A stretch of 64,000 nucleotides of DNA from Chitinophagaceae bacterium (GCA_040510375.1 JBEVJC010000024.1:84071-148070); one strand, 5' to 3'. Numbered from the stretch's first letter, positions 17,519-33,815 are shown. Translations and numbers: made by a program. Notes: generated by a model from the sequence alone, not told the origin.

Positions 17519-19960
17519 TTACAATTCAGCAAAAACAGTGGGTATGTCCTTAAACGAAGCGCTGACCACAGATCTTCCTTTATTGATATTCACCCTGATG
17601 ATGGCGCGGCCATTGTACAATTGCACCACCCGCGATCCGGAAGATGTTCCCAGGTTATCGATGAGTTTGCCATCGCCTGTAATTCCAAATCGCACCTGCA
17701 GACGGCTATCGAGACAAACCAATCCCTGTTCATCCCTTAACTTCACTTCCATAGTAGCCACTCCATTCTCTTCAGAAATCTTCCGCAACTCTGCTTTGGC
17801 GGGCTTGCCCCAATTGCCTGACTGGTATTCGAATTTTAACGAATCAACGAGACTGATCTTTCCTTTGCGGCCAATCACTTTCACCTGGTAGCTACCGGCA
17901 CTCATGGGAACTGCCCAACGAAGGCCAGCTGCGGGAAAATCATTGCTGTCCCGCTTTTTTGTGCCGACACTTTTACCGTTTACAAACAATTCGGCTGATT
18001 CCATATTGGAGAACACCTTGATAATATTGGATTCCTTTTCATTACCCCAACGCACCGGCCAGGAATGGCCATAGATATGGATCATGGGCTGGTCCGACCA
18101 ATACGACTGGTAAACATAAAACGATTCCTTTTTTGTAAAATCACGTTCCACAACTCCCTTCTGGTTTACATAGGGTACAGGGTTCTCCGGACGAAGAGGT
18201 GTTGAAAAATCCTTAAACGGCCATTGTGCTGTTCCGGTTAACCAGGGCATGGATTCCTGTTCTTTCAGGTGCCAGTCGACCAGGTTAATGATGTACGACT
18301 CACTCCAGTCGCCATCCTTCGATGCCCTTGCGGCACCACCAACCAATGCGGCGTCGCCTGCCCGTTCATCAGCTTTACCAACTGCAGCTATTTGCTGCAA
18401 TCCTTTATCGGGGTTTTCTGAATGACGACCTGCATGGCTATCTCCACCCCATTCCACATGCAGGAAGTGATCCACTTTTTTTCGTTCAACTTCTGAAATG
18501 CTTTTGTATTCGGTATACATACCCCGGTACCAGCCAGCCCAGATTGATGGAGAATAAATATCCACGATGTCTTTGCAAAAATCGCAACGCCTGATGGCCG
18601 TCTTTCTGGATGGATCCAGTTTATGGGAAAAGCTATTCAACTCTTTCATAAAGTTGCGGATTTTCAATGTATCATAGATGGGAAAATCCCCGGGCCAGTC
18701 GTTCTCATTACCCAGTCCCCAGATGACAACCGAAGGATGGTTATAATGTTGTTCAATCATATTGGTGAGCATCCGTTTGGCCTGATCCTGGTAGATCTCG
18801 CCACCAAGTCCGCCCCTGCACCAGGGGATCTCTTCCCAGACCAGGATACCAAGACTATCACAAAGATTCAGGATTATACGCGACTGCTGGTAATGTCCAA
18901 GCCGGATAAAATTAACGCCCATATCTTTTATCATCAGCATTTCGGTACGCATCATCTCTTCCGTCATGGCCGCACCTACAGCTGCATGGTCTTCATGCCT
19001 GTGCGTGCCCTTTAACAAAAGCCGTTTCCCATTCAACAGGAAGGGTCCCTGTTTTACAAATTCAAAATGCCGGAAGGCAAACCTGTCTTCATATGTATAA
19101 TCCCCCATCTTTATACTTATATGATAGAGGCGCGGGTTGGCGGGCGACCAGCGAATGGGTTTCTTCAGCATAACTGATACCGGCTTGTCTGGATTCAGTG
19201 ATATTGTTGAAGTATTCTGATAAACTTCTTTTCCGGTGGGATCGGTGACCCGCATTTCCCAGTTGGTTTCTGTTGTATTACTCTTATTATAAAATCGCGG
19301 AAGGATACTGATGTTGCCGGTGGTTCCATTTTCGTCGGTTTCAGCGTTGATAAATAATTTATCGATCGACAGGTCGGGTACATACACCAGGTTCAGGTAA
19401 CGGTAGATACCACCATAAACATTAAAATCCGATAAGGCTGAAGGGATCATTTCCAGATCGCGGGAATTATCCGTCCTGATAGATAAAGGAACCCTGCCTT
19501 TAAATTGCCTTACAGATACCGGCATCTCACGGAAATCAGCAACAACATCAGTGATATCGACACTGAATTCATCATAACCGCCCACATGCACCGCAACAAG
19601 CGTGTTATAGATATACACGGAAGTTTTTTGTCCGGCCCCTTCAAAATGAAGGATGGTACGACCTTGCGGATAAGGATTTTTTATATCGAGAGTGGTCCGG
19701 TACCAGGCGGGACCCTGGTAGTAATTTATATCCGGATCGGTTGCATCCAGTGCATTTACACAATGAGGTAAGGATACGGATGTCCACACAGGCACTGCCT
19801 CGGGACCACCGGGAGGAACCGGTCGCACCGCTTCCCAGACCCCGCCCAGGTCCGACCGGAGGTATTGCCAGTTATCCGTTAAACGGGTTGATTGTTGTGA
19901 TTGTGCGTTGAAAAAAAAGCAGGCAAAGGCAGGCAGGAAAATTCGGGGTAGCATCTTCAT
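17519..19960 (-). CDS. glycoside hydrolase family 2 (beta-glucuronidase/beta-galactosidase type)
   Basis: GTHRHEDH..., NFIRLGHY and NHPSVVIWGLGNEND (acid/base NE) with the EWGG nucleophile region; about 810 aa with a signal peptide. Confidence 0.8.
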   Translation of the reverse strand: MKMLPRIFLPAFACFFFNAQSQQSTRLTDNWQYLRSDLGGVWEAVRPVPPGGPEAVPVWTSVSLPHCVNALDATDPDINYYQGPAWYRTTLDIKNPYPQGRTILHFEGAGQKTSVYIYNTLVAVHVGGYDEFSVDITDVVADFREMPVSVRQFKGRVPLSIRTDNSRDLEMIPSALSDFNVYGGIYRYLNLVYVPDLSIDKLFINAETDENGTTGNISILPRFYNKSNTTETNWEMRVTDPTGKEVYQNTSTISLNPDKPVSVMLKKPIRWSPANPRLYHISIKMGDYTYEDRFAFRHFEFVKQGPFLLNGKRLLLKGTHRHEDHAAVGAAMTEEMMRTEMLMIKDMGVNFIRLGHYQQSRIILNLCDSLGILVWEEIPWCRGGLGGEIYQDQAKRMLTNMIEQHYNHPSVVIWGLGNENDWPGDFPIYDTLKIRNFMKELNSFSHKLDPSRKTAIRRCDFCKDIVDIYSPSIWAGWYRGMYTEYKSISEVERKKVDHFLHVEWGGDSHAGRHSENPDKGLQQIAAVGKADERAGDAALVGGAARASKDGDWSESYIINLVDWHLKEQESMPWLTGTAQWPFKDFSTPLRPENPVPYVNQKGVVERDFTKKESFYVYQSYWSDQPMIHIYGHSWPVRWGNEKESNIIKVFSNMESAELFVNGKSVGTKKRDSNDFPAAGLRWAVPMSAGSYQVKVIGRKGKISLVDSLKFEYQSGNWGKPAKAELRKISEENGVATMEVKLRDEQGLVCLDSRLQVRFGITGDGKLIDNLGTSSGSRVVQLYNGRAIIRVNINKGRSVVSASFKDIPTVFAEL

Positions 19961-20075: not shown

Positions 20076-20103
20076 AAAAAAACTGCCTCAGAAATTGAGG
20101 CAG
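20076..20103 (-). terminator. Rho-independent terminator
   Basis: Minus strand: CTGCCTCA-ATTTC-TGAGGCAG followed by TTTTTTT. Confidence 0.6.
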
Positions 20104-20189
20104 TTCGTAGACGCTTAATTATTGTAAGGTATACAGGAAGTAACACGTCCTGGTCATTATTAGGATTTGGCGTTGCTTTCAAAACCGGA

Positions 20190-20351
20190 TCATACCCTCA
20201 GATAAAACCGGGCAAATTCATTTTTGTTGTTTTCCAGGTAATCAATAATTTTTTCAAGACTCACCCTGGAAATACCACAGGTTTCTAGAATGTATTCCCT
20301 CGAAACTTTTAGTTTGCTCTGGAGATACTCCAACTGTTTTTCGTATGACAT
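20190..20351 (-). CDS. 53-aa ORF below the track cutoff, HTH-like (MSYEKQLEYLQSKLKVSREYILETCGISRVSLEKIIDYLENNKNEFARFYLRV)
   Basis: ATG at 20349-20351 and TGA at 20190-20192. It is bracketed by two strong minus-strand terminators (20528-20555 upstream, 20076-20103 downstream), so it would be a stand-alone unit. Confidence 0.35.
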   Translation of the reverse strand: MSYEKQLEYLQSKLKVSREYILETCGISRVSLEKIIDYLENNKNEFARFYLRV

Positions 20352-20527
20352 GTTGGTTGTCATTATACGCCGTTTAGTATTAACACTACGTGGAAGTATC
20401 GTGCCAACAACCGTTAATAAAGGTTAGCACTTAGAGAACTAAATGAATGTGGTGAAATAACACATTAACCCCGTCAGTTGCAGCCTTAATAAAATAAATA
20501 TGGGATATGGGGTCCGTATTTATGCGC

Positions 20528-20555
20528 AAAAAAAACCTCCTGCGTTGGCAGGAGG
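20528..20555 (-). terminator. Rho-independent terminator ending the AhpD-like/MFS/SusCD/DUF3179 unit
   Basis: Minus strand: CCTCCTGC-CAAC-GCAGGAGG followed by T8, 30 nt after the DUF3179 stop. Confidence 0.7.
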
Positions 20556-20584: not shown

Positions 20585-21766
20585 TTATTTTTCTGTACCC
20601 GGATGGAATTGTTTCCATGAATGCCAGAACTCCTGGTATGAAGGCAAACGTTCCAGCTGGTAGCCATTCATCAGGCCAAAAATACCTGTACCATCGGTGG
20701 TCCACAATGAACCCGTTTGCCGGTCCGTCATTGTATTGTCATTATGAAGGATGGAGAAGTCGAAGACCTGATCGGCCAACCTTCGGTTGAATGTATGGAA
20801 TGACTTGCCATCATCATCCAGGGTCAGCAACAATGGTATATTACCGGCACTGTCCTGGATCACCTGTTTTTTTACAAGTTCGTTCCAGTCGTATGCCTTG
20901 TACTTTCCGGGAGCGTAGTTGACACCGATCACCCATGACTTGTCCGACCAGGATGTACTGTCACGATGTTCAAGTCCGCCCGCAATAGTGCCTTCGTCAT
21001 ATCCTTCCAGGTCATCATAACGTTTCTTAAACCCGCCGTCGGGCTGAAGCACGGTACTGTTGGGATGGAGCCTGAACCAACTTGCCAGTGTCATCTGCTG
21101 TGAAGGGATCTCTTCGAGAGTTGTTCCCTTCAGCTTGCCGGCAATGGCTTGGCCGGTAGCCTGTTGCCACCAGCTCTTTGTACCTGCATCTTCGAACATT
21201 GCATTAAAATGATCCATCCCCACAAGCCTGAATTCTTCCGGTTTGCCATTTACCAGCGGGGAATAAACGCGACCGGTGCGACAGACGGTGCAATAGGTTA
21301 CCATCACCGGTTTTTCGGAAATGCTATCGCGCACCTGGTGGTGATAACCGATGACCTCAACCGGATAAGCTTTTGATTGTCCATTGATCAATACACCCAG
21401 CACCAGTTTATTTGAATCAACTTTATTTTCCGTGCGGTTATAAAAAGTTTTAACTGTTGGCTGATAAAACATTTTATCCGCCTCAAACCGGAAGTTGACA
21501 AAATAGAATACAATAAAGTAGAGGAACAATACCAGCACAAGCGCTAACTTCTTCCATCGACGGTTATTCCTTAACGCATAAACTACGGGATAGATAAGTA
21601 TTACAGCCAGCAGGATCCTGAGCCAGATGATATTCCTGCCCAGCCAGTAGGCAAAGCCGATGGTATCTGCCTTTTGTGATCCGGGAAATGGCATGATGAA
21701 ATAAACACGCAGGATTTCAACAGCGAATAAAAGGATCAGTCCGGCAACAAGGATAAATTTTCTCAT
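20585..21766 (-). CDS. DUF3179 domain protein fused to an N-terminal 4-helix membrane domain
   Basis: About 100 aa of hydrophobic helices, then the DUF3179-type core with the VTYCTVCRTGRVYSP CxxC block. Confidence 0.75.
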   Translation of the reverse strand: MRKFILVAGLILLFAVEILRVYFIMPFPGSQKADTIGFAYWLGRNIIWLRILLAVILIYPVVYALRNNRRWKKLALVLVLFLYFIVFYFVNFRFEADKMFYQPTVKTFYNRTENKVDSNKLVLGVLINGQSKAYPVEVIGYHHQVRDSISEKPVMVTYCTVCRTGRVYSPLVNGKPEEFRLVGMDHFNAMFEDAGTKSWWQQATGQAIAGKLKGTTLEEIPSQQMTLASWFRLHPNSTVLQPDGGFKKRYDDLEGYDEGTIAGGLEHRDSTSWSDKSWVIGVNYAPGKYKAYDWNELVKKQVIQDSAGNIPLLLTLDDDGKSFHTFNRRLADQVFDFSILHNDNTMTDRQTGSLWTTDGTGIFGLMNGYQLERLPSYQEFWHSWKQFHPGTEK

Positions 21767-21772
21767 TTGATT

Positions 21773-23074
21773 TTATTCTTCGGTTAATGGTAAAGGAAAT
21801 AAAACCCACACATCATCGCCGCCGCGGTCAATGGGAAGTTCATCAAGCCGGTTGTACCTGCGCAGGTCAATCCAGCGATGGCCTTCATAAAAAAGTGAAT
21901 ACCGGCGTTGCGTAAGTAATTCGGTCAGCAATGCATCTTCAGTGGAAGCACCGCTATAGGGTGATAGTCCGTGACCCCCGCGGATAATATTGAGAGCAGT
22001 TGTTGCAGCAGGCAGTGCACCATTCTGTAAACTGACTTCAGCAGAGAGCAGGATCAGCTCTTCATTCCGGATCAGGGCAATCGGTGCCGTACTGCTTTTA
22101 TACACCCATACATCACGGTCGGAAGAAAGGCCACTGAGGGAAGCCGTAGTATTCCTTAAAGTGGCTTTATTAATTCGGTCGTCGCCGGGATTGATATCAG
22201 TAGCAAAGGAAGGATGAGCCACCCTTGTTTCCCCGTTTGTATTCTGTGGAATGAACATGGGATTGAGCTGATCGCCTGAACCGGTACCAAATGTATGGTA
22301 GACCCCGGCATTAAAATCACCGGCGGGATCAAGGAACGATTCATCCAAAGCAGTCTGTGCAGCGTCCCAGTCCTCCTGGTACACCGCTACCCTTGCTGCC
22401 AGTGCCCGGTTGAACTTTACCAGTCCGGCCGCATCGGAGAGACCAGCAAACCCTGCCAGTGGAAAGCTGACAGCAGAACCCGTAAGATCCGTTTTCCCGC
22501 TATTCAATAAAGTGATGATGGCGGTCAGCGATTGATCGTAGTTCAGTACGGGACCCAGGTTATCAGGATCGTTCACATCCACCCTTACTCCATTGGTATA
22601 GGTCAGGTTGAGATTGAGGAGAAGCTGGTAGGCCTTGATGGTTTTTGCAAATCCTGTATAGGCCTTACGTTGTGGCTCTGTGATCAATGTTGAATTGGTG
22701 GCAGCTTCGATCAGCACATTACAGTTCTTTATAACCCGGTACCGGGCAGACCATGGGGTTGCAATATAAAAGTTACTATTGCTGAGCGTACCACTGTTGA
22801 ACCCAAGCAGGTCTGTCACATAACGGGGTTCAGAGCCTGAGAAGCGGTACCCTTCGCGACCAATGGTGCCTACATCATCAATGTAAAACGCCATGGATGT
22901 GCGCATACCCGATTCGGTGCCGCTGACAAGATTATTCAGCTGGCTTTGTGAGGCATTGGCGAGAAAATCCTCCACGGTCGGATTGTTGAGATTACCGAAA
23001 TCCTTCTTGCACGAATTGAATGCAAGCGCCATTACGGCAAGCAGGAGTGAATTTTTTATATGAATCATTTTCAT
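21773..23074 (-). CDS. SusD/RagB-like outer membrane lipoprotein (short, 433 aa)
   Basis: Lipobox AFNSC; SusD-like helical repeats (IKAYQLLLNL, LLTQRRYSLFYEGHRWIDLRR); lies 18 nt downstream of SusC. Confidence 0.8.
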   Translation of the reverse strand: MKMIHIKNSLLLAVMALAFNSCKKDFGNLNNPTVEDFLANASQSQLNNLVSGTESGMRTSMAFYIDDVGTIGREGYRFSGSEPRYVTDLLGFNSGTLSNSNFYIATPWSARYRVIKNCNVLIEAATNSTLITEPQRKAYTGFAKTIKAYQLLLNLNLTYTNGVRVDVNDPDNLGPVLNYDQSLTAIITLLNSGKTDLTGSAVSFPLAGFAGLSDAAGLVKFNRALAARVAVYQEDWDAAQTALDESFLDPAGDFNAGVYHTFGTGSGDQLNPMFIPQNTNGETRVAHPSFATDINPGDDRINKATLRNTTASLSGLSSDRDVWVYKSSTAPIALIRNEELILLSAEVSLQNGALPAATTALNIIRGGHGLSPYSGASTEDALLTELLTQRRYSLFYEGHRWIDLRRYNRLDELPIDRGGDDVWVLFPLPLTEE

Positions 23075-23092
23075 CTTGGTAGTATTTAATGT

Positions 23093-26026
23093 TTAGAGGT
23101 CGATAGTCAGGTGAAAGCTGGCACGTTTAACTGCGGGATAAGGAAGTACATCAACCCCGGTCGAAAATCCTGTTCCGAAATTTGATACTTCCGGATCGTA
23201 TGATTTGTATTTGGTAATGGTCCACCAGTTATTAAGTGATACCCCCACCCTTACGCCACGCAGATAACTTAACGGCAATTTGGTGAAACTATAATAAAGA
23301 CCGATTTCGCGAAGGCGCATGTAACCTGAGTTCTGGACGAATTCTTCTGCCGTGGTACCCACCTTGCTGATCCGATAGATTCCGTTCGGCAATCCGGCTT
23401 CATTGCCGATCACATCAAAGTCTTTACTGGTCATTCCGAAATCATTCTGCAGGCTGGTCAGGTTTATATTTTGACCACCCGCTTTCAGATGCACCAGGAA
23501 ACGCAGGCTCAGCCTGTTTCTGAAGGTAATATCGTTATAGGTATTCATCTGGAATTTGGGTTCCGCATCTCCCAGTAAACCTACGCCCCTTCCATTGAGA
23601 CCAAGGATCTGGGTGGCGGATTTTCCTTCTTCAATCTGGAAACTTCCAAGTACATAACCGAATGAGCCCTGTGGGGTGGACGGGATATCGAGCCTGGTCA
23701 CGGTTGAACGGTTCTTCCAGAAGTTCAGCGTGGTATTCCATACCAGGTCACGGTTGGAAACGGGTCTTGCACTCATCCCCAGTTCCACGCCACGGTTGCG
23801 CAGGTCGCCGGCATTAACCCATTTGCTGGTGAAACCGGATGAAGAAGGCAGACTGGCCTGCATCAGGAAGTCAGTGATTTTTTTAGTGTAATAAGTAAGC
23901 TGGAACGACATCCTTCCATTCAGTACGGTGAAATCGACACCGGTTTCAAACTCCGACTGGCGTTCGGGTTTAATACCCGGCTGGCCCTGTTGTACACTTA
24001 CAATTGAACCAGGATTACCATTGATATTGGACACTACCAGTGAAGTGAACTTACTTCCATATGCCGGTACATTATTAGCCTGGCCAAATGCAGCACGTAA
24101 TTTAAGATCGTTTACAAATGTCTGTGGTATGATCCCCATCCTGGTAAGGTTCCAGGAAACACCAGCCTTTGGATAGGCATAGTATTTTGTTGCATCGCCA
24201 TTATTGGAAGAGCGGTCAAAACGTACACCACCAGTAAGGATAATTGCGTCAGCGATTAATGCTTCTTCCTGTACAAACACCCCTTCATTCTGGTATTTGG
24301 TCCTGAACTGGGTGGCATTCGAAGCACCAGCCTGGTCTACATTTGACTGACCGGAAATCACCTGTGTGGCTATGTTCAGGATATTATTGTAGTTACCCGT
24401 TTCCCTGGTAAGTCCGGCAGATGTGGTAAGTGCCAGCTGTTCTGAAACATTAAACACATTCACCAGTGAGAGGATATAGTTGGTGCTCAGGCTCCGGGTA
24501 TTCCCTTGTATGGAGGTGCCTTTGTTGATTGCCTGGAACTGCAGTTCACTCGGGAAGAGTACTGTAGTAGCGAGATTATAAAAATCGACTCCCCCGCGGC
24601 CAATAAAACTGGTAGTGCTTTTATTATTTTTCTGCAGGATAGCTTCCAGATTAAAACCATTTATAAAACGGTTGACTGCTTCGTTGTTCTTCATCAGCGC
24701 GATAGTTTGCAGCGGATTGGAAGCAGCGAACGGGTTGGCCGGGTAGTTACCAAATTCGTCGGGGTGCAGCTGGGCAAATGAAGGTGTAGAGGAAAGTGCG
24801 ATCCCCAGGGTAACACCAGCGTTATCATTTCCATTAAATCCGCGGTCGGCCGATGAATTAATATAATTGGAGCTTACACTGATCTTGATATTATCATTGA
24901 TCCGGTGATCAAGGTTGAGTCGCACACTGGTATTACGGTAACCGGTTTTTTTAACAATCCCCTCTTCATCTTTTTGCGAAGCAGAAAGATAAAAGCCGGT
25001 TTTTTCGTTGCCGCCACTCAGACTGGCAACGGTGTTGCGGGCAAATCCGGTATTCCCATAAATTTCTTTTTCATAGTCAAAGATTTTACCGGCAGCTTTC
25101 GCTGCTTCAAACTGTGCGCGTAATGCGGTGCTGGTAGCGGGATCGGATGAAAGTCCGGCTGCACGGTCGCCGTTAAATTCACGGGCGCCCAATAATTTCC
25201 TGGCCTCGATCAGGCCAAGGTCCTGTGAAACAGACACCCTTGTCTTTCCCGCCTTTCCTTTTTTAGTAGTGATGATCACCACTCCTGCTGCGGCTTTTGA
25301 TCCATATATTGCGGCCGCCGAAGCACCTTTAAGGATCTCGATATTTTCGATATCCTCCGGACGGATATCAGCGATACGGCTGGAGGGGTTATCCTGTGAA
25401 GAAGTAGTGGCAGAGCCTGACGCGTTGGTCACCACATTCAATCCACCTGATGTGGAACTGTTATCTACAAACACTCCATCGAGTACATACAATGGCTGGG
25501 TATTCCCGAATACAGAAGTAACACCACGGAGTTTTACCGAGATGCCTCCACCCGGTGCGCCGGAGTTGGCATTTATATATGCGCCCGTGATCTTTCCGTT
25601 CAGGGCCGCATCAAAAGTCTGCGCGGGTGCAATCCCGTTCAGTTCGCGGGCCGAAATGGTGGCTACTGCGTTTGCGAGGTTACGGCGTTTGACATTGGTG
25701 GCCAGACCCGTGACTACTACTTCATCCAGTCGCGCCACATCTTCTTCAAGACTGATACTTATTTCCGCAGTTGATGTTGTAACGGGAAATGTAACGGTGC
25801 GGTAACCCGTTGCACTGATGACCAGTGTGGCAGGCGGACTGACTGTAATGCTGAAACGTCCGGCGGTATTGGTCACCGTTCCCGCAGTTGATTGTGTTAC
25901 GGAAATATTTACGTTGGACGCCGGTTGTTTATCCGGCCCGGTGATTACACCGGTGATAGTTTTTGTTTGCGCCATTACTGTAGTCATCAGTAACAGAAGC
26001 GAAATCATTAGCAGGTAATTTTTCAT
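23093..26026 (-). CDS. SusC/RagA family TonB-linked outer membrane protein
   Basis: CarboxypepD_reg-like N-terminus, TonB box DEVVVTG, plug (IEILKGASAAAIYGSKAAAGVVIITTKKG). Confidence 0.9.
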   Translation of the reverse strand: MKNYLLMISLLLLMTTVMAQTKTITGVITGPDKQPASNVNISVTQSTAGTVTNTAGRFSITVSPPATLVISATGYRTVTFPVTTSTAEISISLEEDVARLDEVVVTGLATNVKRRNLANAVATISARELNGIAPAQTFDAALNGKITGAYINANSGAPGGGISVKLRGVTSVFGNTQPLYVLDGVFVDNSSTSGGLNVVTNASGSATTSSQDNPSSRIADIRPEDIENIEILKGASAAAIYGSKAAAGVVIITTKKGKAGKTRVSVSQDLGLIEARKLLGAREFNGDRAAGLSSDPATSTALRAQFEAAKAAGKIFDYEKEIYGNTGFARNTVASLSGGNEKTGFYLSASQKDEEGIVKKTGYRNTSVRLNLDHRINDNIKISVSSNYINSSADRGFNGNDNAGVTLGIALSSTPSFAQLHPDEFGNYPANPFAASNPLQTIALMKNNEAVNRFINGFNLEAILQKNNKSTTSFIGRGGVDFYNLATTVLFPSELQFQAINKGTSIQGNTRSLSTNYILSLVNVFNVSEQLALTTSAGLTRETGNYNNILNIATQVISGQSNVDQAGASNATQFRTKYQNEGVFVQEEALIADAIILTGGVRFDRSSNNGDATKYYAYPKAGVSWNLTRMGIIPQTFVNDLKLRAAFGQANNVPAYGSKFTSLVVSNINGNPGSIVSVQQGQPGIKPERQSEFETGVDFTVLNGRMSFQLTYYTKKITDFLMQASLPSSSGFTSKWVNAGDLRNRGVELGMSARPVSNRDLVWNTTLNFWKNRSTVTRLDIPSTPQGSFGYVLGSFQIEEGKSATQILGLNGRGVGLLGDAEPKFQMNTYNDITFRNRLSLRFLVHLKAGGQNINLTSLQNDFGMTSKDFDVIGNEAGLPNGIYRISKVGTTAEEFVQNSGYMRLREIGLYYSFTKLPLSYLRGVRVGVSLNNWWTITKYKSYDPEVSNFGTGFSTGVDVLPYPAVKRASFHLTIDL

Positions 26027-26066
26027 CCCTTGATTTTAAAGTTGAATAAAAATGGATCGGTACTAA

Positions 26067-26636
26067 TTATAGAGTGTCTGGTTGTTTAGCTAAACTGATG
26101 GCCCGCCCCCCATACCCTGTATCCACTACTTCCCTGGCCCGGAAGGGATAGGAAGAAAGATCGGTGGGGGTATTCGCAGCAAGTCCGTCGACATAACGGT
26201 TGAAGAGGCAGAACAGCGCTGCGATAAGCACGGTATCATGGATTTCACGGTCAGTGGCACCATGTCCTTTTGCCTGTAACACCTGGTCGGCTGTTACGGC
26301 CCTGCCACTTTGTTGTACACTCGCCGCGATACGGAGTAAGCTGCTTAGTTTGGGAGATACGGACGCTTCAGCGCCGTAAATCCTTACCTGTTCCACCAGT
26401 CCTGTGTTACCATTGAGGTATTCGCAGGCAATGGCGGCATGGGAATGCTGGCAGTAAAAACAGTCGTTCAGGTACGATACATGGGCGCCGATCATTTCGC
26501 GTTCGGCCGGGGATAGTCCGTTTTCATCACGGAGTAAAATATTCGCGAGATCCGCAAGCGGTCCCGCTACTTCGGGCCGGAAGGCAAGCAGGGAGCGGAT
26601 CCCGGGCAGTTGTTCGTTTACATTTATGAAAGACAT
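26067..26636 (-). CDS. AhpD/carboxymuconolactone-decarboxylase family 'peroxidase-related enzyme', paralog P1
   Basis: LPGIRSLL..., CFYCQHSH (CxxCxxxH) and ATDREIHDTVLIAALFCLFNRYVDGL. No signal peptide. Confidence 0.8.
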   Translation of the reverse strand: MSFINVNEQLPGIRSLLAFRPEVAGPLADLANILLRDENGLSPAEREMIGAHVSYLNDCFYCQHSHAAIACEYLNGNTGLVEQVRIYGAEASVSPKLSSLLRIAASVQQSGRAVTADQVLQAKGHGATDREIHDTVLIAALFCLFNRYVDGLAANTPTDLSSYPFRAREVVDTGYGGRAISLAKQPDTL

Positions 26637-26767
26637 TGTTGTCGCAGTTGAGTTTGGTTCTGGTATTTTTTTGGCCGGCTCTTTATCTGATGGATAAATT
26701 TTCCGGATTTCTCTCTATCGATTGGATAAATTTTATTGACGGTTGTTTATGGCAAGGTGGTCACGGT

Positions 26768-27319
26768 TCAGGTAGTCACATCAATATTTGCATAACCTGC
26801 TTCTGCTCTCATTTTTGCCCGGTCAATATAAACCTGCCGGTCGGCCGGTGCCCAGGTCTGCAGGCCATCAACATACCGGTTAAACATACAAAAGGCAGCA
26901 GCGATCAGTACGGTGTCGTGGATTTCCCGGTCGGTCGCCTCCTGCTCTCTTGCATGCGCAATCAGTTCGGCAGTCACCTGTTTCCCTCCCCGTTGCACTG
27001 CAGCGGCGATCTGCAGCAGGCTTTTCATTTTTCCGGAAATTGGCATGGCAAGTGGATTCGCCTTCACTCCGTCGATGAAGGAAGTATCACATTCCAGGTA
27101 GTGCTGGGCCATAGCGCCATGAACATTCTGGCAAAAAAAACAATCATTGAGTGATGACACGTAGGTGCCGATAAGTTCACGGTCGCCCCTGCTCAGTGTA
27201 TTGTCTTCATCGTGCAGCAGCACCTCTGCCAGTTCATTCAATGGCCTTGCAGTTTCGGGCCGGTATGCCATTGGTCCGCGGATACCGGGTAAATCATTCT
27301 TAAGATCAATAAATGCCAT
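26768..27319 (-). CDS. AhpD/CMD family peroxidase-related enzyme, paralog P2
   Basis: LPGIRGPM..., CFFCQNVH and ATDREIHDTVLIAAAFCMFNRYVDGL. Confidence 0.8.
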   Translation of the reverse strand: MAFIDLKNDLPGIRGPMAYRPETARPLNELAEVLLHDEDNTLSRGDRELIGTYVSSLNDCFFCQNVHGAMAQHYLECDTSFIDGVKANPLAMPISGKMKSLLQIAAAVQRGGKQVTAELIAHAREQEATDREIHDTVLIAAAFCMFNRYVDGLQTWAPADRQVYIDRAKMRAEAGYANIDVTT

Positions 27320-27321
27320 GG

Positions 27322-27861
27322 TTATTTTTTTTGTGGTAAAACATATCCCTTCGCCATCCGTTCACCCATTTCTGTGTAGACCTGTGGATCAGTTGGTGTG
27401 AAGGTGGCGAGGCCGTCGACATAACGATTGAATAATGAAAAAGTGGCAGCGATCAGTACCGTATCATGGATCTCGCGATCCGTTGCTGATGCAGCTTTTG
27501 CCTGGACGATATCATTGGCTGTAACATCCATGCCCGATTCCTGGACTTTACCCGCGATGCGGAGTAAGGCCTGCATCTTGCGGCTGACAGATGGATGTGT
27601 TGGATCGTTCAGTGCGGTATCGGTCAGTGAAGGGCGGGCCGACAAAACCCTTGCCGCAGCAGCGTGGCTGTCGCGGCAGAACCTGCAATCATTTTTCTGC
27701 GATACATAGGCCGCAATCAATTCGCGGTCAGATGCGGGCAGGGTGGAGTAACCACGCAATAATACCTGCACCAGCTCATATAAGGGTTTGCCGGTTTCGG
27801 GGCGGAACATTACAAGGCTCCTGATCCCAGGTATGGATGTATCGAGATCTATATGTGGCAT
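27322..27861 (-). CDS. AhpD/CMD family peroxidase-related enzyme, paralog P3
   Basis: IPGIRSLV..., CRFCRDSH and ATDREIHDTVLIAATFSLFNRYVDGL. Its ATG overlaps the MFS stop (TAATG). Confidence 0.8.
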   Translation of the reverse strand: MPHIDLDTSIPGIRSLVMFRPETGKPLYELVQVLLRGYSTLPASDRELIAAYVSQKNDCRFCRDSHAAAARVLSARPSLTDTALNDPTHPSVSRKMQALLRIAGKVQESGMDVTANDIVQAKAASATDREIHDTVLIAATFSLFNRYVDGLATFTPTDPQVYTEMGERMAKGYVLPQKK

Positions 27862-29135
27862 TAGTTATTTTTTAAAATGATTTGTTCCGCTACCTGGCCG
27901 GTGGGTTCTGCTTCGCTCACCGCCGGCTCGTCAGGGGTAAGCAGCAGGACCAGGAATCCGGCAAGGAATATGAATGAAAAGGCAAATAATGCAGAACCAT
28001 AACCACCCAGTTCCGACACAAGTACACCAACAAACAACACAGCTGCCGCGGTAAAAAAACGACCGATATTAAAACAGAAACCGGTGGCACGTCCGCGCAC
28101 CGCAACAGGAAACAGGAGTGGAATATAAACAGACAATACACCCTGGCTGATTCCAAAGGCGAGGGCAATGATTAAAATTCCCGCGTAAACCAGTGGTTTG
28201 ATTTCGTTGTTTGTTTTAAAAAGCAGCAGGGAGAACAGGGCACAGATCCCGAAACAAAGCAGCATTGATTTTCGAAGGCCGAGTGCATTAATGATCCAGC
28301 CGGAAATAAAACCACCAACTAGTCCGCCCATACCGAGCATCATCATACTTAGACCACGTTCATTTTGTCCATCACCCTCCTTCACCAGGGTTTGTATCCA
28401 GGTAGGCAGCCATGAAAAAACTGCCCAGAGTCCAATCAGCATGGTTCCAAATATCAGTGAGCCTTTTAACAGGTTAAGCCGGATCTGTTTTGCTGGCCGC
28501 ATCAATCCTGTGGCCTTCCTGGTGAACACCGACCTGCTCAGCTTCCAGCTCACCGATTCGCGGAGCAGGAAGATGGAAAGAAACGCAATGATCACCGGTA
28601 TAATCCCAACAAGAAATGCCTGTCGCCAGGAGGATACAAATAAATCTATTACACCGGCCGAAAAAATGCCAACCGGAAAAGAGATGGACAGGATGCCCAT
28701 AAAGATAGCCCGCGAACGAACGGGCCATTCTTCCATCATCAGTGTGGTAGTGGTTACCAGCACGGCTCCCATTCCCACTCCACTTAAAAAGCGGCAGGCC
28801 ACAATGCCCCACCAGTGCGGCATGTAGCCATTAACAATGGTGAAGGTCCCATAACAGGCAATGGAAAAAATGACAGCTGTTTTCCGTCCCCACCTGTCGC
28901 TGATCCATCCGGCAAATAATCCACCAAAAGCTGCACCCAATATAAATACCGAGTTGATATAACCACTGATCCGGTTAAACTGGCCGGGGTCCTGGTGGCC
29001 CATCACATCTTTCACTGCAACCGGAAGGTAGACCGACATAAGTGTGCTGACGGTTCCTGCCAATGCGGTTGCAAGGAAACAGATCAGGAACATGATCCAA
29101 TGATATCCGGTTATCTTTTCGCCTGGTTCTTTCAT
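27861..29135 (-). CDS. MFS transporter (12-TMS type)
   Basis: MFS motif A GWISDRWGRK; 12 hydrophobic segments; 424 aa. Confidence 0.85.
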   Translation of the reverse strand: MKEPGEKITGYHWIMFLICFLATALAGTVSTLMSVYLPVAVKDVMGHQDPGQFNRISGYINSVFILGAAFGGLFAGWISDRWGRKTAVIFSIACYGTFTIVNGYMPHWWGIVACRFLSGVGMGAVLVTTTTLMMEEWPVRSRAIFMGILSISFPVGIFSAGVIDLFVSSWRQAFLVGIIPVIIAFLSIFLLRESVSWKLSRSVFTRKATGLMRPAKQIRLNLLKGSLIFGTMLIGLWAVFSWLPTWIQTLVKEGDGQNERGLSMMMLGMGGLVGGFISGWIINALGLRKSMLLCFGICALFSLLLFKTNNEIKPLVYAGILIIALAFGISQGVLSVYIPLLFPVAVRGRATGFCFNIGRFFTAAAVLFVGVLVSELGGYGSALFAFSFIFLAGFLVLLLTPDEPAVSEAEPTGQVAEQIILKNN

Positions 29136-29173
29136 GCGTTTGATTTTAAATGATCATAACTCGCTTCTTTCAT
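29132..29173 (-). CDS. 13-codon relay mini-ORF 2 (MKEASYDHLKSNA); its stop overlaps the MFS ATG (ATGA)
   Basis: Read directly from repeat copies 1 and 2. Translation is not demonstrated. Confidence 0.25.
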   Translation of the reverse strand: MKEASYDHLKSNA

Positions 29174-29211
29174 GCGTTTGATTTTAAATGATCATGACCT
29201 GCTTCTTTCAT
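29170..29211 (-). CDS. 13-codon relay mini-ORF 1 (MKEAGHDHLKSNA); its ATG overlaps the P4 stop and its stop overlaps the ATG of mini-ORF 2
   Basis: Read directly from repeat copies 2 and 3. Translation is not demonstrated. Confidence 0.25.
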   Translation of the reverse strand: MKEAGHDHLKSNA

Positions 29212-29774
29212 GCATTTGATTTTAAATGATCATAACCCTGTGGAAGGCGGTAGTAGCCGTGCTCCTTTAATCGTATTGCCAGTGCCGCATAGTAACCGGG
29301 ATCGGTTGGTGTAACCGTTGCCAGTCCGTCTACATACCGGTTATATAAACTAAATAATGCGGCAATCAGTACGGTATCGTGGATCTCCAGGTCAGTAGCA
29401 CCGGCAGCCTTTGCTTCGCTGATCACTTCGGCGGTTACAGACTTGCCGCTTACGCGGACCAGGGCGGCAATGGCCAGCAGTGTTTTCATTTTTTCTGAAA
29501 CAGGCGCGGTGCTGATATCTGTCTTCACACATTCAACTGTTTCTGATTCACCCGAAAGGATTTCCACTGCTGCGGTATGTGCAGTGCTGCAAAAAACGCA
29601 GCCATTACCATGCGACACAACCGTTGCGATGAGTTCACGCTCGGGTTCAGTCAGCGTGGATGGACCACGAAGCAGGATCTGGGTCAGTTCACGGATTGGC
29701 GCAGCTGTTGCCTGGCTGTATTCCAGCAGGCCTGTAATACCGGGAAGGTGTTCTTCCAGGGGAATGTGTGGCAT
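29208..29774 (-). CDS. AhpD/CMD family peroxidase-related enzyme, paralog P4
   Basis: LPGITGLL..., CVFCSTAH and ATDLEIHDTVLIAALFSLYNRYVDGL. The C-terminal YDHLKSNA is encoded inside repeat copy 3. Confidence 0.8.
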   Translation of the reverse strand: MPHIPLEEHLPGITGLLEYSQATAAPIRELTQILLRGPSTLTEPERELIATVVSHGNGCVFCSTAHTAAVEILSGESETVECVKTDISTAPVSEKMKTLLAIAALVRVSGKSVTAEVISEAKAAGATDLEIHDTVLIAALFSLYNRYVDGLATVTPTDPGYYAALAIRLKEHGYYRLPQGYDHLKSNA

Positions 29775-29864: not shown

Positions 29865-30419
29865 TCAGCAGGATAATTGCGGCGGGCGCTCGGGGATTAA
29901 ACGGAATAAAGAAAAACAGGAGGGCGGCTGCACCGCAAGTTTCAATGCTTTGGCGGGGTTGATACCGGCGATTGAATAATCAGGTAAAACGTTGCAGAAA
30001 TCAGCAGCAGCACCCGTTTTTTTCAGGTTGTCCTGTTTTGATTTTTTACCTGCAGGAAATCCATTGATCTCCTTTGTAATAAGCCGGCTTTCTTTAAGGA
30101 TCGATGTCTTCTGCTGATTGGGTATGCAGAGTACCGATAATGTATCATTGAACACCCGGCGTTTGACATAATTATAGATTATTCCCTGGTGTTCAATGCT
30201 GCCGTCACACCGTTCGTAAGCGGTGGAACTCAACAGGTAAGGTAGATTCAGCGGGATTTTTACTTCAACCAGGTTACGTTCATCGTAGTTCGATTTGTCA
30301 AGCCTTGCCACCAGCTGCGAATCGGAACGTTTGATCAATATATCAAAGACGAGAGTGTAACCCGCGAAGTTAAAGGCATGAATGGCGATCAGTAATATGG
30401 CAATCGGTCTTTTCAACAA
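29865..30419 (-). CDS. conserved-looking membrane-anchored hypothetical protein
   Basis: N-terminal TM helix (KRPIAILLIAIHAFNFAGYTLVF). The ORF contains no ATG at all, so it must start at TTG (30417-30419). It is on the same strand, between the regulator and P4. Confidence 0.5.
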   Translation of the reverse strand: MLKRPIAILLIAIHAFNFAGYTLVFDILIKRSDSQLVARLDKSNYDERNLVEVKIPLNLPYLLSSTAYERCDGSIEHQGIIYNYVKRRVFNDTLSVLCIPNQQKTSILKESRLITKEINGFPAGKKSKQDNLKKTGAAADFCNVLPDYSIAGINPAKALKLAVQPPSCFSLFRLIPERPPQLSC

Positions 30420-30464
30420 ACTAAATTTAGGAAAATAAAACAGATACGGGAATATTTTTTCCGG

Positions 30465-33407
30465 TTAGTCCCCCACCTCGTTTTTCACCTCCTTACGCTG
30501 GATATCGAAGAGGAACTGGAACAGGTTGGTTTCCCTTGGAATCTGTAATTTTTTACGTAACCGGTAACGGCTGATCTCCACGCCCCTTACGGAAATACTC
30601 ATCAGCTGTGCCACTTCCTTGCTGGAAAGGTTCATGCGCAGGTATGCACATAATTTAAGTTCATGGGCTTTCAGGTCAGGATAACGTTCTTTCAGCAACA
30701 TCAGGAAATCCCCGTTTACCTTATCAAAATGTACACTGAATTGTTCCCATTCTTCTGTTACCTTTTCCTCTTCGGCCATGATCCTTAAAATTTTTTTCAA
30801 TTCACCCGGGTCATGTTTTTCCTTTCCTGTTTTGTTCATATGCTGCAGTTCCTCCCGGATCTTCTGGAGGAATTCTTCTTTCTGTACCAGGTGCATTGCG
30901 GTGGAAGCAAGTTGCGAATTTTTGTAACCGATCTCTGCTTCCAGTTTTTCGTTTCGCAGTTTCACCACTTCCTTCTCCGATTTTTCCAGTTCAAGTGTAT
31001 GCAGGTAGGCTTGTTTTTTCTGTTCTTCCTGGTGTTTCAATCTTTCCGATTGAAGTTTGCGCTGGTGCTTTTTATAGAACCACCACATGATACCCACTCC
31101 AAGAAGAGCGTAAAAAAGCCAGGCCCATGTGGTAAAATACCAGGGCGGCAACACCACAATACTATAACTGCTGATGGCGCTCTCACCGCGGAGGTTATTG
31201 CGCATCCGCACCTGGAATGTATAATTACCCGCGGGCAGGTTGGTATAATCCTTCTCGGTTTTTTTGGACCAGTCGGACCAGTCGCGATCAAAATTCCTGA
31301 GTTTATAACTGTATTCTATATTGGATTGCTGTTCATATAAAGGAGAAGAGAATTCGAAATGGAAAGAATTAAGATCATGGCCCAGAGAGAATACATCATC
31401 TTCCCTTTGTGCACTGCTGCCGTTGGCCACGCGGGAATAACCATCATAAAGTAGTTGTTCGCTGCTACCCATGGCTTTTACCGTGCGGATAAAAACGGAA
31501 AGGCCTGCATTGGTCTGTTTATATTTTTCATAGTTGATATGGTAGAATCCTTTTTCACCTCCCACAAAAATATTATTATCGTTCACAGGATAGATATGTT
31601 CAAACCCGCTCATGATTTTACCCGTGAGTTCCGGAAAAAAAATAAGTTTTGGTTCCCGTGTGGAAAAGTCAACCACCCCGATATTTTTTTCCTGCACGAA
31701 CCAGATATTCCCGCTGCCATCTTCCTTCAGATAACGGATTCCACGGGTACCAAAAATATCTTTATAATAGTCAGACAACTGAAAACTGTCTGCCCGGTGG
31801 TTGTATTCATAAATCCCTTTTTCGGTAGCAATGATCACTTTGTTTTTGACCTTGTATACATGGTTATTCAATGTAGAGGGAAGACCGTTAGACTGTGTAA
31901 AAAGCCGGACTCCGTGGTTCAGGCCACTTTTTGCGGGGTCAATTTTATAAATGCCGCGATAAGGATGCGATACCCAGATGGTCTGGTCGTTATCGATTTC
32001 CAGAAAGCGGGCTGAGGCCCTGAAGTTCGCTACAGAACCGCGTTCTGTAAATACGCCATTATTATAATCAAACAGGCGCACACCCAGGTAGGTTCCCGCT
32101 GCGATGGTTGGTCCCTGTTTGAATTGCTGGATGGATTCGAATGTCCAGAAGCCTGTGCCCCGGCTGATGGCGCTGGCCTGGTCGCCGCGCACCAGGTAGA
32201 AACCATCGTCCATTGCGGCGAGCATTTCGTTGTTTACAATTGAAAAACCGTAGGTCTGTCCCCAGGTTACCAATGATGTTTCATTACTGGCATAACTCAG
32301 GTCGCGTATAGCCGGCAACGGCATACGGAAAATTCCTGATGATAGTCCAAAGTACAGGTTGCCGTTCATCATGGAAACGGCGAAGCCTGATCCGTCGTTC
32401 ATAACCGGGGGACTGATATGTTTTACCGCATTATTGATTGCAATGAAATCGATGCCGCTGTCCAGTCCGAACCAGATATTATTACTCTTGTCAAGGAACA
32501 TGGTGCGAATGCTGTTATGCTGTAGTCCGTCACGTTTGGAAAAATTATCAAGTACCCATCCATTTCTGTTTATCAGGTAAAAACCATTTGAGTTGGTACT
32601 TACTGCAACATGTTCCGGATCCACTATCACAGCTCCGCTGAATTCGGTACCCGTTGGTACGGCCATACCTGTAAGCCGGAGTGGTGTAAGGGTGTTGCCG
32701 CCGAAACGGAATAAACCAAAACGATTGGTACTCACCAGGGCAGTATCGTCGCCCAGTGCGGTCATATCATTTATCCGGATGCCAGCCGGAAGTTCATCAG
32801 CGGGGATAATGGTGGTAAATACTGCTCCCCTGAACTCTGATAAGCCGGTCCGGCCATCCTGGGCCAGTAACCTTCCTGAAACCAGTCCGAGGTAAATCCA
32901 TGAGCTGGCGGCTGGATAAGAAGTGATCTTATTATTATGGAAGCGGAAGATCCTGCCCGAGGATCGGAAGTACACATCCTCCCCCACTGTAATGATTGTC
33001 CAGATATCTGCAAAGCGGCGATCGGCTTCAGGAATTAGTCCCACCAGCGAATTAAAGACCAGTTTCCCGTTTTTGTCCGGTGCGAAATATCCAAATTCAT
33101 CCTGGCCTCCTACATAGATCTTTTTATCCTTCCCAAACTCCATTGCCCTTAAAATGGTTTTATTGGGCAGCGGGTAGAGTTTCCAGTAGGTACCATCGAA
33201 GCTGAGCAATCCTTCATTATTGGCAAAATACATCCGCCCCTCTACATCCTGCCTGATGGCCCAGTTCTGGGCACCGGCGTTATATTGGCTTTTTTCGTAA
33301 TTCACTATTTCACTCTGGCCGATGTAGCGCTGAGTGAATGCATCAGACACGAAAAACAGTAAAAGGAAAAATATTAATACCCTGGAAATCATTGGCAGTT
33401 TAATCAT
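30465..33407 (-). CDS. one-component sensor/regulator: periplasmic beta-propeller repeats + Y_Y_Y domain + TM helix + coiled coil + LuxR-type HTH
   Basis: Signal/TM helix at the N-terminus, a long propeller-like region, Y_Y_Y-like block (EYSYKLRNFDRDWSDW...NYTFQVR), TM (WAWLFYALLGVGIMWWFY), and C-terminal LuxR HTH (LSSKEVAQLMSISVRGVEISRYRLRKKL). Confidence 0.8.
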   Translation of the reverse strand: MIKLPMISRVLIFFLLLFFVSDAFTQRYIGQSEIVNYEKSQYNAGAQNWAIRQDVEGRMYFANNEGLLSFDGTYWKLYPLPNKTILRAMEFGKDKKIYVGGQDEFGYFAPDKNGKLVFNSLVGLIPEADRRFADIWTIITVGEDVYFRSSGRIFRFHNNKITSYPAASSWIYLGLVSGRLLAQDGRTGLSEFRGAVFTTIIPADELPAGIRINDMTALGDDTALVSTNRFGLFRFGGNTLTPLRLTGMAVPTGTEFSGAVIVDPEHVAVSTNSNGFYLINRNGWVLDNFSKRDGLQHNSIRTMFLDKSNNIWFGLDSGIDFIAINNAVKHISPPVMNDGSGFAVSMMNGNLYFGLSSGIFRMPLPAIRDLSYASNETSLVTWGQTYGFSIVNNEMLAAMDDGFYLVRGDQASAISRGTGFWTFESIQQFKQGPTIAAGTYLGVRLFDYNNGVFTERGSVANFRASARFLEIDNDQTIWVSHPYRGIYKIDPAKSGLNHGVRLFTQSNGLPSTLNNHVYKVKNKVIIATEKGIYEYNHRADSFQLSDYYKDIFGTRGIRYLKEDGSGNIWFVQEKNIGVVDFSTREPKLIFFPELTGKIMSGFEHIYPVNDNNIFVGGEKGFYHINYEKYKQTNAGLSVFIRTVKAMGSSEQLLYDGYSRVANGSSAQREDDVFSLGHDLNSFHFEFSSPLYEQQSNIEYSYKLRNFDRDWSDWSKKTEKDYTNLPAGNYTFQVRMRNNLRGESAISSYSIVVLPPWYFTTWAWLFYALLGVGIMWWFYKKHQRKLQSERLKHQEEQKKQAYLHTLELEKSEKEVVKLRNEKLEAEIGYKNSQLASTAMHLVQKEEFLQKIREELQHMNKTGKEKHDPGELKKILRIMAEEEKVTEEWEQFSVHFDKVNGDFLMLLKERYPDLKAHELKLCAYLRMNLSSKEVAQLMSISVRGVEISRYRLRKKLQIPRETNLFQFLFDIQRKEVKNEVGD

Positions 33408-33546: not shown

Positions 33547-33815
33547 CCCATTATTTCCCTGTCGTCAGTACAGCGCTAACTTTGCTTTGCTTGTTCATAC
33601 GGGTCAGCCAGCCCGCTCAAAACTTAACGCTTGTACAATGAAACGAGAAAAAACGATTGCCATACTTCCCGCTCCCGGAAGTATGACCAACTTAAACCTC
33701 CCCTTAAAACATATTCAGATTTTTTACCAGTTTATCCCGAAAACCGGATGATTAATCCATGCCCGAACCCGCCTCTGCTTATCAACCAATTTTAGAAACG
33801 AAATCATTTAAAACG

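Follow-up and report, generated by a model that had tools for sequence, protein, structure and literature searches.

A CAZyme-free SusC/SusD operon of Chitinophagaceae with four AhpD-like proteins, a candidate locus for uptake and thiol-based processing of a small solute

SusC/SusD systems are understood nearly all as glycan importers, with few peptide, vitamin and siderophore exceptions. In polysaccharide utilization loci (PULs) and RagA-RagB uptake systems, a SusC-type barrel is followed by a SusD-type lipoprotein, and both are co-directional with genes for processing and inner-membrane transport. Import across two membranes is also known from proteobacterial pairs of a TonB-dependent receptor and a major facilitator superfamily (MFS) permease, such as FptA/FptX and PdtK/PdtE for metallophores and DdvT/DdvK for a lignin-derived aromatic acid. 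To our knowledge no physiological role has been assigned to the ‘peroxidase-related’ AhpD-like family, to DUF3179 or to the small protein that we call U184. Here we describe an operon in which these three occur together with a SusC/SusD pair and an MFS carrier. It is located on a 64,000-nucleotide stretch of DNA from a Chitinophagaceae bacterium (GCA_040510375.1, JBEVJC010000024.1:84071-148070), referred to below as the window. The operon shares the gene layout of PULs and resembles in its import logic the proteobacterial pairs, which lack AhpD-like partners, a SusD lipoprotein, U184 and DUF3179.

The unit consists of nine real co-directional genes, U184, P4, MFS, P3, P2, P1, SusC, SusD and DUF3179, where P1 to P4 are AhpD-like proteins of the carboxymuconolactone decarboxylase (CMD) family (Table 1). 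An earlier note on this DNA had named eight of the open reading frames (ORFs), and our analysis of the window agrees with it on their coordinates, minus strand and gaps; profile searches returned the families it had proposed for all proteins (CMD, MFS, SusC, SusD and DUF3179). The note had described a nine-gene unit starting at P4. The genes from P4 to DUF3179 are real, but the first gene, U184, had been overlooked; it is syntenic at the head of homologous clusters in other genomes and therefore belongs to the unit. None of the nine proteins matches a family of carbohydrate-active enzymes (CAZymes), and for this reason the locus falls outside the definition of a PUL. Unlike PULs, the operon contains no glycoside hydrolase, lyase, esterase, sulfatase or peptidase and has no conserved hybrid two-component or extracytoplasmic function (ECF)/anti-sigma regulator. 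Its only enzyme-like members are the four CxxCxxxH proteins, as had been claimed. The partner enzymes here are cytoplasmic AhpD-like thiol oxidoreductases, and the SusD-like protein is unusually short. At the window's two remaining SusC/SusD pairs, for which glycoside hydrolases and a lyase had been noted, the neighbours are indeed an alginate-lyase-family gene, GH88, GH2 and UxuA, or an FG-GAP/UnbV protein. The GH2 gene (17519-19960) is separated from the operon by two terminators and is not syntenic in relatives. The cluster is best explained as an operon for uptake and processing that spans the envelope, is conserved and modular, and belongs to Chitinophagaceae and Sphingobacteriales; it is not a PUL. 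In the literature we found no account in which AhpD-like proteins, DUF3179 or U184 form the core of a SusC/SusD or TonB locus, which agrees with the novelty claimed in the earlier note; the locus is an apparently undescribed variant of the TonB/SusCD uptake locus rather than something categorically new.

Conservation was assessed in two scans. A DUF3179-profile scan gave 80 species-representative loci out of 572 confirmed relatives, and these loci were then searched with the window proteins. CMD genes were found in 20 of the 80 loci, U184 also in 20, MFS genes in 17 and SusC/SusD in 12, while the complete nine-gene set was present in seven. A second scan, with a CMD alignment against metagenome contigs, added 80 further loci with the same gene set in more permutations. 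The same genes or their sub-modules recur in related genomes, which is the conserved synteny that the earlier note had looked to as a check on its operon. One recurrent gene order is that of the window, U184-P4-MFS-P3-P2-P1-SusC-SusD-DUF3179, and a second places DUF3179 near the front, U184-DUF3179-P4-MFS-P3-P2-P1-SusC-SusD. The third, U184-P4-TBDT2-MFS-P3-P2-DUF3179, includes a 919-aa non-SusC TonB-dependent receptor (TBDT2) and lacks P1 and SusC/SusD, and the fourth is U184-P1-SusC-SusD-DUF3179. Two cultured organisms have related clusters: U184-P4-MFS-P3-P2-P1-SusC-SusD in Flavitalea sp. BT771 (GCA_030546645.1), with no adjacent DUF3179, and P1-SusC-SusD-esterase-MFS-CMD-CMD in Hufsiella arboris HMF7647 (GCA_009834875.1), with DUF3179 on another contig. 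A third cultured carrier, Paracnuella aquatica N24, has the form with the alternative TonB receptor.

These arrangements show two evolutionary modules, P1-SusC-SusD and P4-MFS-P3-P2, plus U184, and not the single indivisible array that had been assumed. P1 is directly upstream of SusC wherever downstream sequence is present, with a second U184 copy between the two in a few loci (L069, L090 and L095), and clusters without SusC/SusD are also without P1. The modules also occur apart, P1-SusCD only in one locus (L002) and the CMD/MFS module only in three (L018, L021 and L085). P4 precedes the MFS gene or, in other genomes, an alternative TonB receptor, and in some genomes the P4-MFS-P3-P2 module is found with a non-SusC receptor of this kind. 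CMD genes are absent from about 60 of the 80 DUF3179 loci. Since most DUF3179 loci stand alone, the cultured clusters have no adjacent copy and the gene orders vary, DUF3179 is a recurrent but facultative neighbour which was joined to the cluster in several ways. The ‘complete compartment logic’ of the earlier note was an over-reading for the same reason, as DUF3179 is not an obligatory part.

All four AhpD-like proteins score above the PF02627 cut-off of 23 bits. For TIGR01926, the ‘peroxidase-related enzyme’ family with a cut-off of 81.8 bits, P4 and P1 are above the threshold and P2 and P3 just under it. Pairwise identity among the four is 45-49%, and E47, C59, C62 and H66 are invariant, which gives the proton-relay/dithiol signature of AhpD, E-x11-CxxC-x3-H. 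The PDB relatives of P1 (3c1l, 2pfx, 2prr and 6k40; E 5e-16 to 2e-10) are uncharacterised ‘peroxidase-related’ AhpD-like proteins with which it shares the fold family by sequence. By these sequence criteria P1 to P4 are members of the AhpD-like CMD superfamily. None of them has a hydrophobic N-terminus, in line with the lack of signal peptides reported before. In the loci of relatives the complete E-x11-CxxCxxxH motif is present in 215 of 221 CMD ORFs. P2 is the most conserved paralogue and always paired with P3; 52 of its 53 orthologues keep the motif. The loops around the cysteines differ characteristically, with NDCFYC[HQ]xSH in P1, NDCFFCQNVH in P2, NDCMFCxxSH in P3 and N[QE]C[RT]FCT[TA]AH in P4. 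Since each protein has its own orthologues and its own loop residues, the four are old, selectively maintained paralogues and not recent duplicates. The operon contains no gene for an AhpC peroxiredoxin, nor was one recognised in the annotated recurrent neighbour clusters of about 160 related loci; lacking this genetic partner, P1 to P4 are not AhpD proper. They also differ from AhpD in the presence of four paralogues per locus with lineage-specific loop residues and in their genetic coupling to outer- and inner-membrane transporters, which is not described for AhpD.

Our favoured interpretation, to which we would assign a probability of about 0.4, is TonB-powered import of an oxidised organosulfur or thiol-reactive small anion, followed by reductive processing in the cytoplasm. 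The most likely cargo would be an organosulfur anion in oxidised form, of the disulfide, thiosulfonate or thiosulfinate kind, that serves as a sulfur source or needs reduction on entry. SusC/SusD would capture a scarce small solute at the cell surface with energy supplied through TonB. Periplasmic handling could involve membrane-anchored U184, the His/CxxC site of DUF3179 where this protein is present and, in some relatives, a secreted PF00756 esterase. The MFS carrier, which resembles anion symporters, would move the solute into the cytoplasm, where the AhpD-like proteins, probably as hetero-oligomers, may use their CxxC dithiols for reduction of the cargo at an S-S bond, an S-X bond or a thiol-reactive group. 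In relatives with a MetE-like zinc thiol-methyltransferase or a Cys/Met pyridoxal phosphate (PLP) enzyme, the released thiol could then enter sulfur amino-acid metabolism.

There is experimental precedent for action of the AhpD family on organosulfur compounds. In Pseudomonas fluorescens PfAR-1, resistance to allicin, a thiosulfinate, depends mainly on an ahpD gene (bioRxiv 10.1101/769265), and Escherichia coli YciW, a CMD-family protein linked to CysB, affects cysteine tolerance (PMC10821248). The PfAR-1 resistance sets (ahpD, dsbA, trx, gor, osmC and kefC) resemble our operon in combining a cytoplasmic AhpD-family protein with a periplasmic CxxC protein, there directed against thiol-reactive organosulfur compounds (bioRxiv 10.1101/769265). 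However, the PfAR-1 system is a defence island without importers, whereas the AhpD-like genes described here are tied to uptake and the periplasmic CxxC protein is DUF3179 rather than DsbA.

Accessory genes of related clusters lean in the same chemical direction. A MetE-like (Meth_synt_2) gene encoding roughly 355 aa was found inside at least nine related clusters. The protein is without the N-terminal folate-binding half of MetE, and its H-x-C and D-C-G motifs, read by eye, would be zinc ligands. In four loci (L022, L039, L069 and L070) this gene is located between P2 and P1, and several metagenome loci also have it inside the CMD cluster. Other accessory genes, each in some of the clusters, encode a secreted PF00756 esterase and an FG-GAP/UnbV protein; the latter is found between U184 and DUF3179 or adjoining the CMD cluster (L044 7690-9915, L055, L084, L102, L131 and L150). 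More distant CMD-CMD pairs have transport genes as neighbours, namely 10 TonB-dependent receptors and 10 MFS carriers that belong to other, unrelated families than the window proteins, and they are also flanked by an SsuA-family ATP-binding cassette (ABC) transporter, L-type amino-acid permeases, a cystathionine gamma-synthase-family (Cys/Met PLP) enzyme and MetE-like proteins, with S-adenosylmethionine (SAM) methyltransferases at three pairs. These genes appear to lean toward thiol and sulfur amino-acid chemistry. The earlier note had listed a peroxide, a quinone and other compounds as candidates, and the accessory genes of relatives seem to point more specifically to organosulfur or thiol chemistry than that list.

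Contigs carrying the distant pairs are probably Acidobacteriota-like, judging from a TonB receptor type of 1100 aa with an OMP_b-brl_4 domain. Two-membrane import logic is found in these loci as well, and the presence of transport genes next to them indicates that the link between paired AhpD-like proteins and uptake machinery extends beyond Bacteroidota. It is conceivable, although we regard it as doubtful, that a pair of AhpD-like CxxC proteins is the hallmark of a hitherto unrecognised class of TonB-dependent ‘redox uptake loci’ found across phyla, in which oxidised organosulfur or possibly organo-selenium or metalloid compounds are imported and thiols are released reductively in the cytoplasm.

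Several observations weigh against the organosulfur interpretation. The MFS protein is far under all subfamily cut-offs, so that neither anion specificity nor import direction is established for it. Rfam scans of the operon and seven related loci gave no riboswitch (SAM or other) or other RNA element, only two sub-threshold chance matches, and comparison of the regions upstream of U184 and of P1 across loci gave no shared operator, only A/T-rich promoter-like boxes and lineage-specific palindromic repeats; neither approach ties the operon to sulfur status. The MetE-like, esterase, SsuA-type and PLP genes are accessory and none of them is present in this window. The scheme gives no reason for the use of four distinct reductases on one cargo. 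Finally, a soft-metal cargo would be matched equally well by the conserved Cys and Met of the MFS helices, by the DUF3179 His/Cys/Cys site, by one CopA-type ATPase neighbour and by the selenoproteins in which AhpD is fused to arsenite methyltransferase.

The main rival is therefore acquisition and handling of a soft metal or metalloid (Cu, Zn, Ni, As, Se or Hg, free or bound to a metallophore), which we consider unlikely on balance. In this scheme the TonB receptor and the MFS carrier would import the element, the DUF3179 His/Cys/Cys site would bind or reduce it in the periplasm, and the cytoplasmic CxxC proteins would act as thiol chaperones or reductants, for example for reduction and methylation. 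The receptor-plus-permease architecture is that of the metallophore importers mentioned above, the invariant His and the CxxC of DUF3179 appear to be placed like the ligands of a Rieske centre, and C19, M264-M265, C294 and C354 are conserved in the MFS protein. The PF00756 family includes siderophore esterases, three distant CMD pairs adjoin SAM methyltransferases, DUF3179 is listed among metal-related selenoproteins, and fusions of AhpD domains to arsenite methyltransferases are found in selenoproteins. A P1B-type ATPase with HMA domains follows DUF3179 directly in Paracnuella aquatica, but in that locus only. No recurrent metal-responsive regulator, COG0523 protein or classic metallochaperone was seen among the partly annotated neighbour clusters, and a metal-chaperone role is not demonstrated for AhpD-like proteins. 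The MFS protein, moreover, is closest to organic-anion symporters and no HxxxM-type motif, known from CcoA-like copper importers, is recognisable in it; a CcoA-like assignment was rejected as family scores do not support it. A ‘peroxidase-related enzyme’ is also encoded on a nickel-adaptation island of Mesorhizobium, a link that we judged too remote to count as evidence.

Another possibility is defence, in which the AhpD-like proteins would protect the cell from peroxides or from electrophiles that attack thiols (quinones and allicin-like thiosulfinates, for example) by detoxifying them, the MFS protein would be an exporter and SusC/SusD would merely be co-located. The complete AhpD family signature, the annotation of PDB relatives as antioxidant-defence or peroxidase-related proteins and the allicin resistance conferred by ahpD speak for it. 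However, AhpC, OxyR and other stress genes are neither in the operon nor recurrent in related loci, P1 is strictly coupled to an outer-membrane importer, and the distant CMD pairs are likewise tied to uptake systems (TonB receptors, ABC importers or amino-acid permeases). This coupling to importers favours uptake over defence, which we regard as improbable. Still less credible to us is a chance neighbourhood of two or three independent units, namely a SusC/SusD pair for a glycan or peptide, a CMD/MFS unit and a housekeeping DUF3179 gene. The 131-nt gap between P2 and P1 could hold a promoter and receives extra genes in relatives, the modules can occur apart, and DUF3179 mostly stands alone. 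Yet P1 is inseparable from SusC/SusD, so the link between a redox protein and an importer holds even in the smallest module; the two modules have been re-joined in several gene orders, the CMD/MFS module takes another TonB receptor where SusC/SusD is absent, and no CAZyme or peptidase recurs with the clusters.

With uptake of an oxidised organosulfur compound as the favoured interpretation, the properties of the individual import proteins can be considered. On its profile scores SusC is a SusC/RagA TonB-linked outer-membrane protein (TIGR04056 495 bits, cut-off 368; TIGR04057 signature 56.3, cut-off 46.2; Plug 56.9; barrel 90.6); it contains no cysteine. By its profile match and lipobox, the product of the gene directly downstream is a SusD/RagB lipoprotein, with a lipobox (LAFNSC) whose C22 is present in 13 of 13 orthologues. 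The best subfamily match of the MFS protein is TIGR00895, aromatic acid/H+ symport, at 157 bits, far under the cut-off of 418. As it falls under every subfamily cut-off, only membership in the MFS superfamily is established, and among subfamilies it appears nearest to organic-anion/H+ symporters. Its orthologues (n=16) conserve M33 in addition to the Cys and Met residues named above.

The DUF3179 protein matches its profile over the full length (positions 16-292 of 292). Three transmembrane-like segments were found (4-22, 46-64 and 74-92) where the earlier note had counted four. Positive charges in the N-terminal MRK and in the RNNRRWKK loop between the second and third segments put the DUF3179 domain on the periplasmic side, in agreement with the periplasm-facing CxxC proposed before. 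An AlphaFold (AF2) model has a predicted local distance difference test score (pLDDT) of 82. Foldseek gave local Rieske matches for the first part of the periplasmic domain (5cxm_A, TM-score 0.63; 3gce, 0.60), a similarity of about 0.6 over some 80-90 columns with E above 1e-3, and no full-length structural analogue of the model; a PDB sequence search gave no relative. The protein was rejected as a Rieske [2Fe-2S] protein since it lacks CxH...CxxH and has HH...CxxC instead, with C159-x-x-C162 as its only two cysteines. H142 is in the same Rieske-like subdomain. All 33 distant DUF3179 representatives compared (24-38% identity) keep H142, and conservation of C159 and C162 is 90% or higher. Judged by spacing and not read from the model, H142/H143 and C159-x-x-C162 appear positioned like the ligands of a Rieske cluster.

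Selenoproteins are known in both CxxC families. DUF3179 is listed as a selenoprotein family with a UxxC/T motif (PMC9312934, PMC13188914), and selenoprotein members of the AhpD-like TIGR01926 family carry CxxU (PMC13188914). Replacement of CxxC cysteines by selenocysteine (Sec) in known members of both families supports a redox or ligand role. The CxxC of DUF3179 presumably corresponds in position to the Sec site. Together with the conserved His and CxxC of DUF3179, the Sec forms make it likely that the motifs of both families are catalytic or ligand sites.

In a tree of 83 DUF3179 sequences, 24 came from a housekeeping neighbourhood of MutS2-like, dihydroorotase and YifB-like genes, named by sequence appearance. 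Cluster-linked sequences did not form a clade of their own; the nearest neighbour was also cluster-linked in 10 of 23 cases and no clade was pure. In one genome U184-DUF3179 alone is found at the chromosomal position that holds the whole cluster in relatives. Two single-locus arrangements were also observed: a gene for a P1B-type (CopA-type) heavy-metal ATPase, with HMA domains in duplicate, that directly follows DUF3179 in Paracnuella aquatica (L021, 11272-13722, plus strand), and two tandem DUF3179 genes after SusD in a metagenome-assembled genome (L069, 8345-11000, plus strand).

U184 has no match in Pfam or NCBIfam. The protein combines a transmembrane anchor with a small beta domain and a Lys-rich linker that is disordered, and its C-terminal part carries a conserved PExPP motif; in the ortholog alignment C98, P176, P179 and P180 are invariant. 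Its AF2 model has a pLDDT of 67, and no meaningful fold match was found for it in the PDB.

The gaps between the genes are 90 nt (U184-P4), 72 nt (P4-MFS), a 1-nt overlap (MFS-P3), 2 nt (P3-P2), 131 nt (P2-P1), 40 nt (P1-SusC), 18 nt (SusC-SusD) and 6 nt (SusD-DUF3179). A terminator scan found the hairpin 29 nt after the DUF3179 stop codon, placed with its T8 at 20555-20536, as the sole strong terminator of the operon; hairpins inside the operon are weak stems of 5-8 bp at roughly the frequency of shuffled sequence, which bears out what had been said of both. In U184 orthologues, A/T-rich TAnnTTT boxes resembling the putative promoter of the window are located some 20 nt ahead of the start. 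The two ‘relay’ mini-ORFs of the earlier note do exist (29211-29170, MKEAGHDHLKSNA; 29173-29132, MKEASYDHLKSNA; 13 codons each, chained by ATGA overlaps), but they are not genes of the unit. They arose when the P4/MFS junction was triplicated in tandem with a period of 38 nt, and every copy recreates the ATGA overlap; one relative (L003) has a single direct P4/MFS overlap of 4 nt.

Table 1. Genes and sequence elements of the operon, in window coordinates
Feature	Position	Strand	Basis or remark
Putative operon promoter, TAnnTTTG-like element of Bacteroidota type (cctAAATTTAGTTTG)	30420..30464	-	Intergenic region upstream of U184; inference only
U184, 184 aa, TTG start, heads the cluster	29865..30419	-	One N-terminal transmembrane segment (6-24)
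P4, AhpD-like CMD, NGCVFCSTAH	29208..29774	-	PF02627 48.8 bits; TIGR01926 88.0
38-nt tandem repeat of the P4-stop/MFS-start junction, 2.9 copies	29127..29238	-	Tandem Repeats Finder (TRF) score 196, 91% matches
MFS carrier, 11-12 transmembrane segments	27861..29135	-	MFS_1 143.6 bits
P3, AhpD-like CMD, NDCRFCRDSH	27322..27861	-	PF02627 39.8 bits; TIGR01926 72.6; 1-nt overlap with MFS stop codon
P2, AhpD-like CMD, NDCFFCQNVH	26768..27319	-	PF02627 51.7 bits; TIGR01926 75.5
P1, AhpD-like CMD, NDCFYCQHSH	26067..26636	-	PF02627 54 bits; TIGR01926 82.3
SusC/RagA-type TonB-dependent outer-membrane transporter, 977 aa	23093..26026	-	Signal peptide; Plug, barrel and CarboxypepD_reg domains
SusD-like lipoprotein, short (433 aa)	21773..23074	-	PF07980 41.4 bits (cut-off 23.1); lipobox Cys22
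DUF3179 protein, three transmembrane helices, then periplasmic beta-rich domain	20585..21766	-	PF11376 201.5 bits
Intrinsic terminator, 8-bp GC-rich hairpin (CCTCCTGC-caac-GCAGGAGG), then T8	20528..20555	-	Hairpin scan and sequence

Other features were noted in and around the operon. The P2-P1 gap contains a direct repeat of about 24 nt in two copies spaced by 32 nt (26679-26734, minus strand; AAAATTTATCCAaTCGATAgAGAG and AAAATTTATCCATCAGATAAAGAG). This repeat, which other loci do not share upstream of P1, could be a regulator site or serve P1-SusC-SusD-DUF3179 as an internal promoter. In three loci (L036, L063 and L075) the same gap is filled by long palindromic simple repeats, for example ATGGGATATGAGATA... 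and TGGAAGTATGGAAG... with their reverse complements, which look like repetitive extragenic palindromic (REP)-like elements or hairpins. A Reg_prop/Y_Y_Y sensor-type gene (30465-33407, minus strand; 980 aa) ends 45 nt before U184. It was rejected as the operon regulator as it is not syntenic with the cluster elsewhere, and its target is more probably the divergent SusC/SusD locus beginning near 33759 on the plus strand. FG-GAP/UnbV (CRTAC1-like) proteins follow the second SusC/SusD pair of the window (39578-42940, plus strand). Between the operon and the GH2 gene, on the minus strand of 20080-20363, there is a second good terminator (20106-20080) and a 57-aa ORF (20190-20363). A weak GcvB-like Rfam match in the same interval (23 bits against a threshold of 42) is probably due to chance.

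The conserved operon gives the AhpD-like family, DUF3179 and U184 one testable context, that of TonB-dependent uptake and thiol-based processing. Analogous loci with CMD pairs, TonB receptors and MFS carriers are present in other soil bacteria, probably Acidobacteriota to judge from the receptor type. If such loci do form one class of redox uptake systems, the Chitinophagaceae version would be the first SusC/SusD system dedicated to a nutrient that is not a glycan and is processed by redox chemistry, with U184 and DUF3179 as new components in the periplasm. Should the cargo prove to be oxidised organosulfur, the operon would represent a new sulfur-scavenging route in abundant soil Bacteroidota, and its genes would be markers for the annotation of many ‘orphan’ SusC/SusD pairs.

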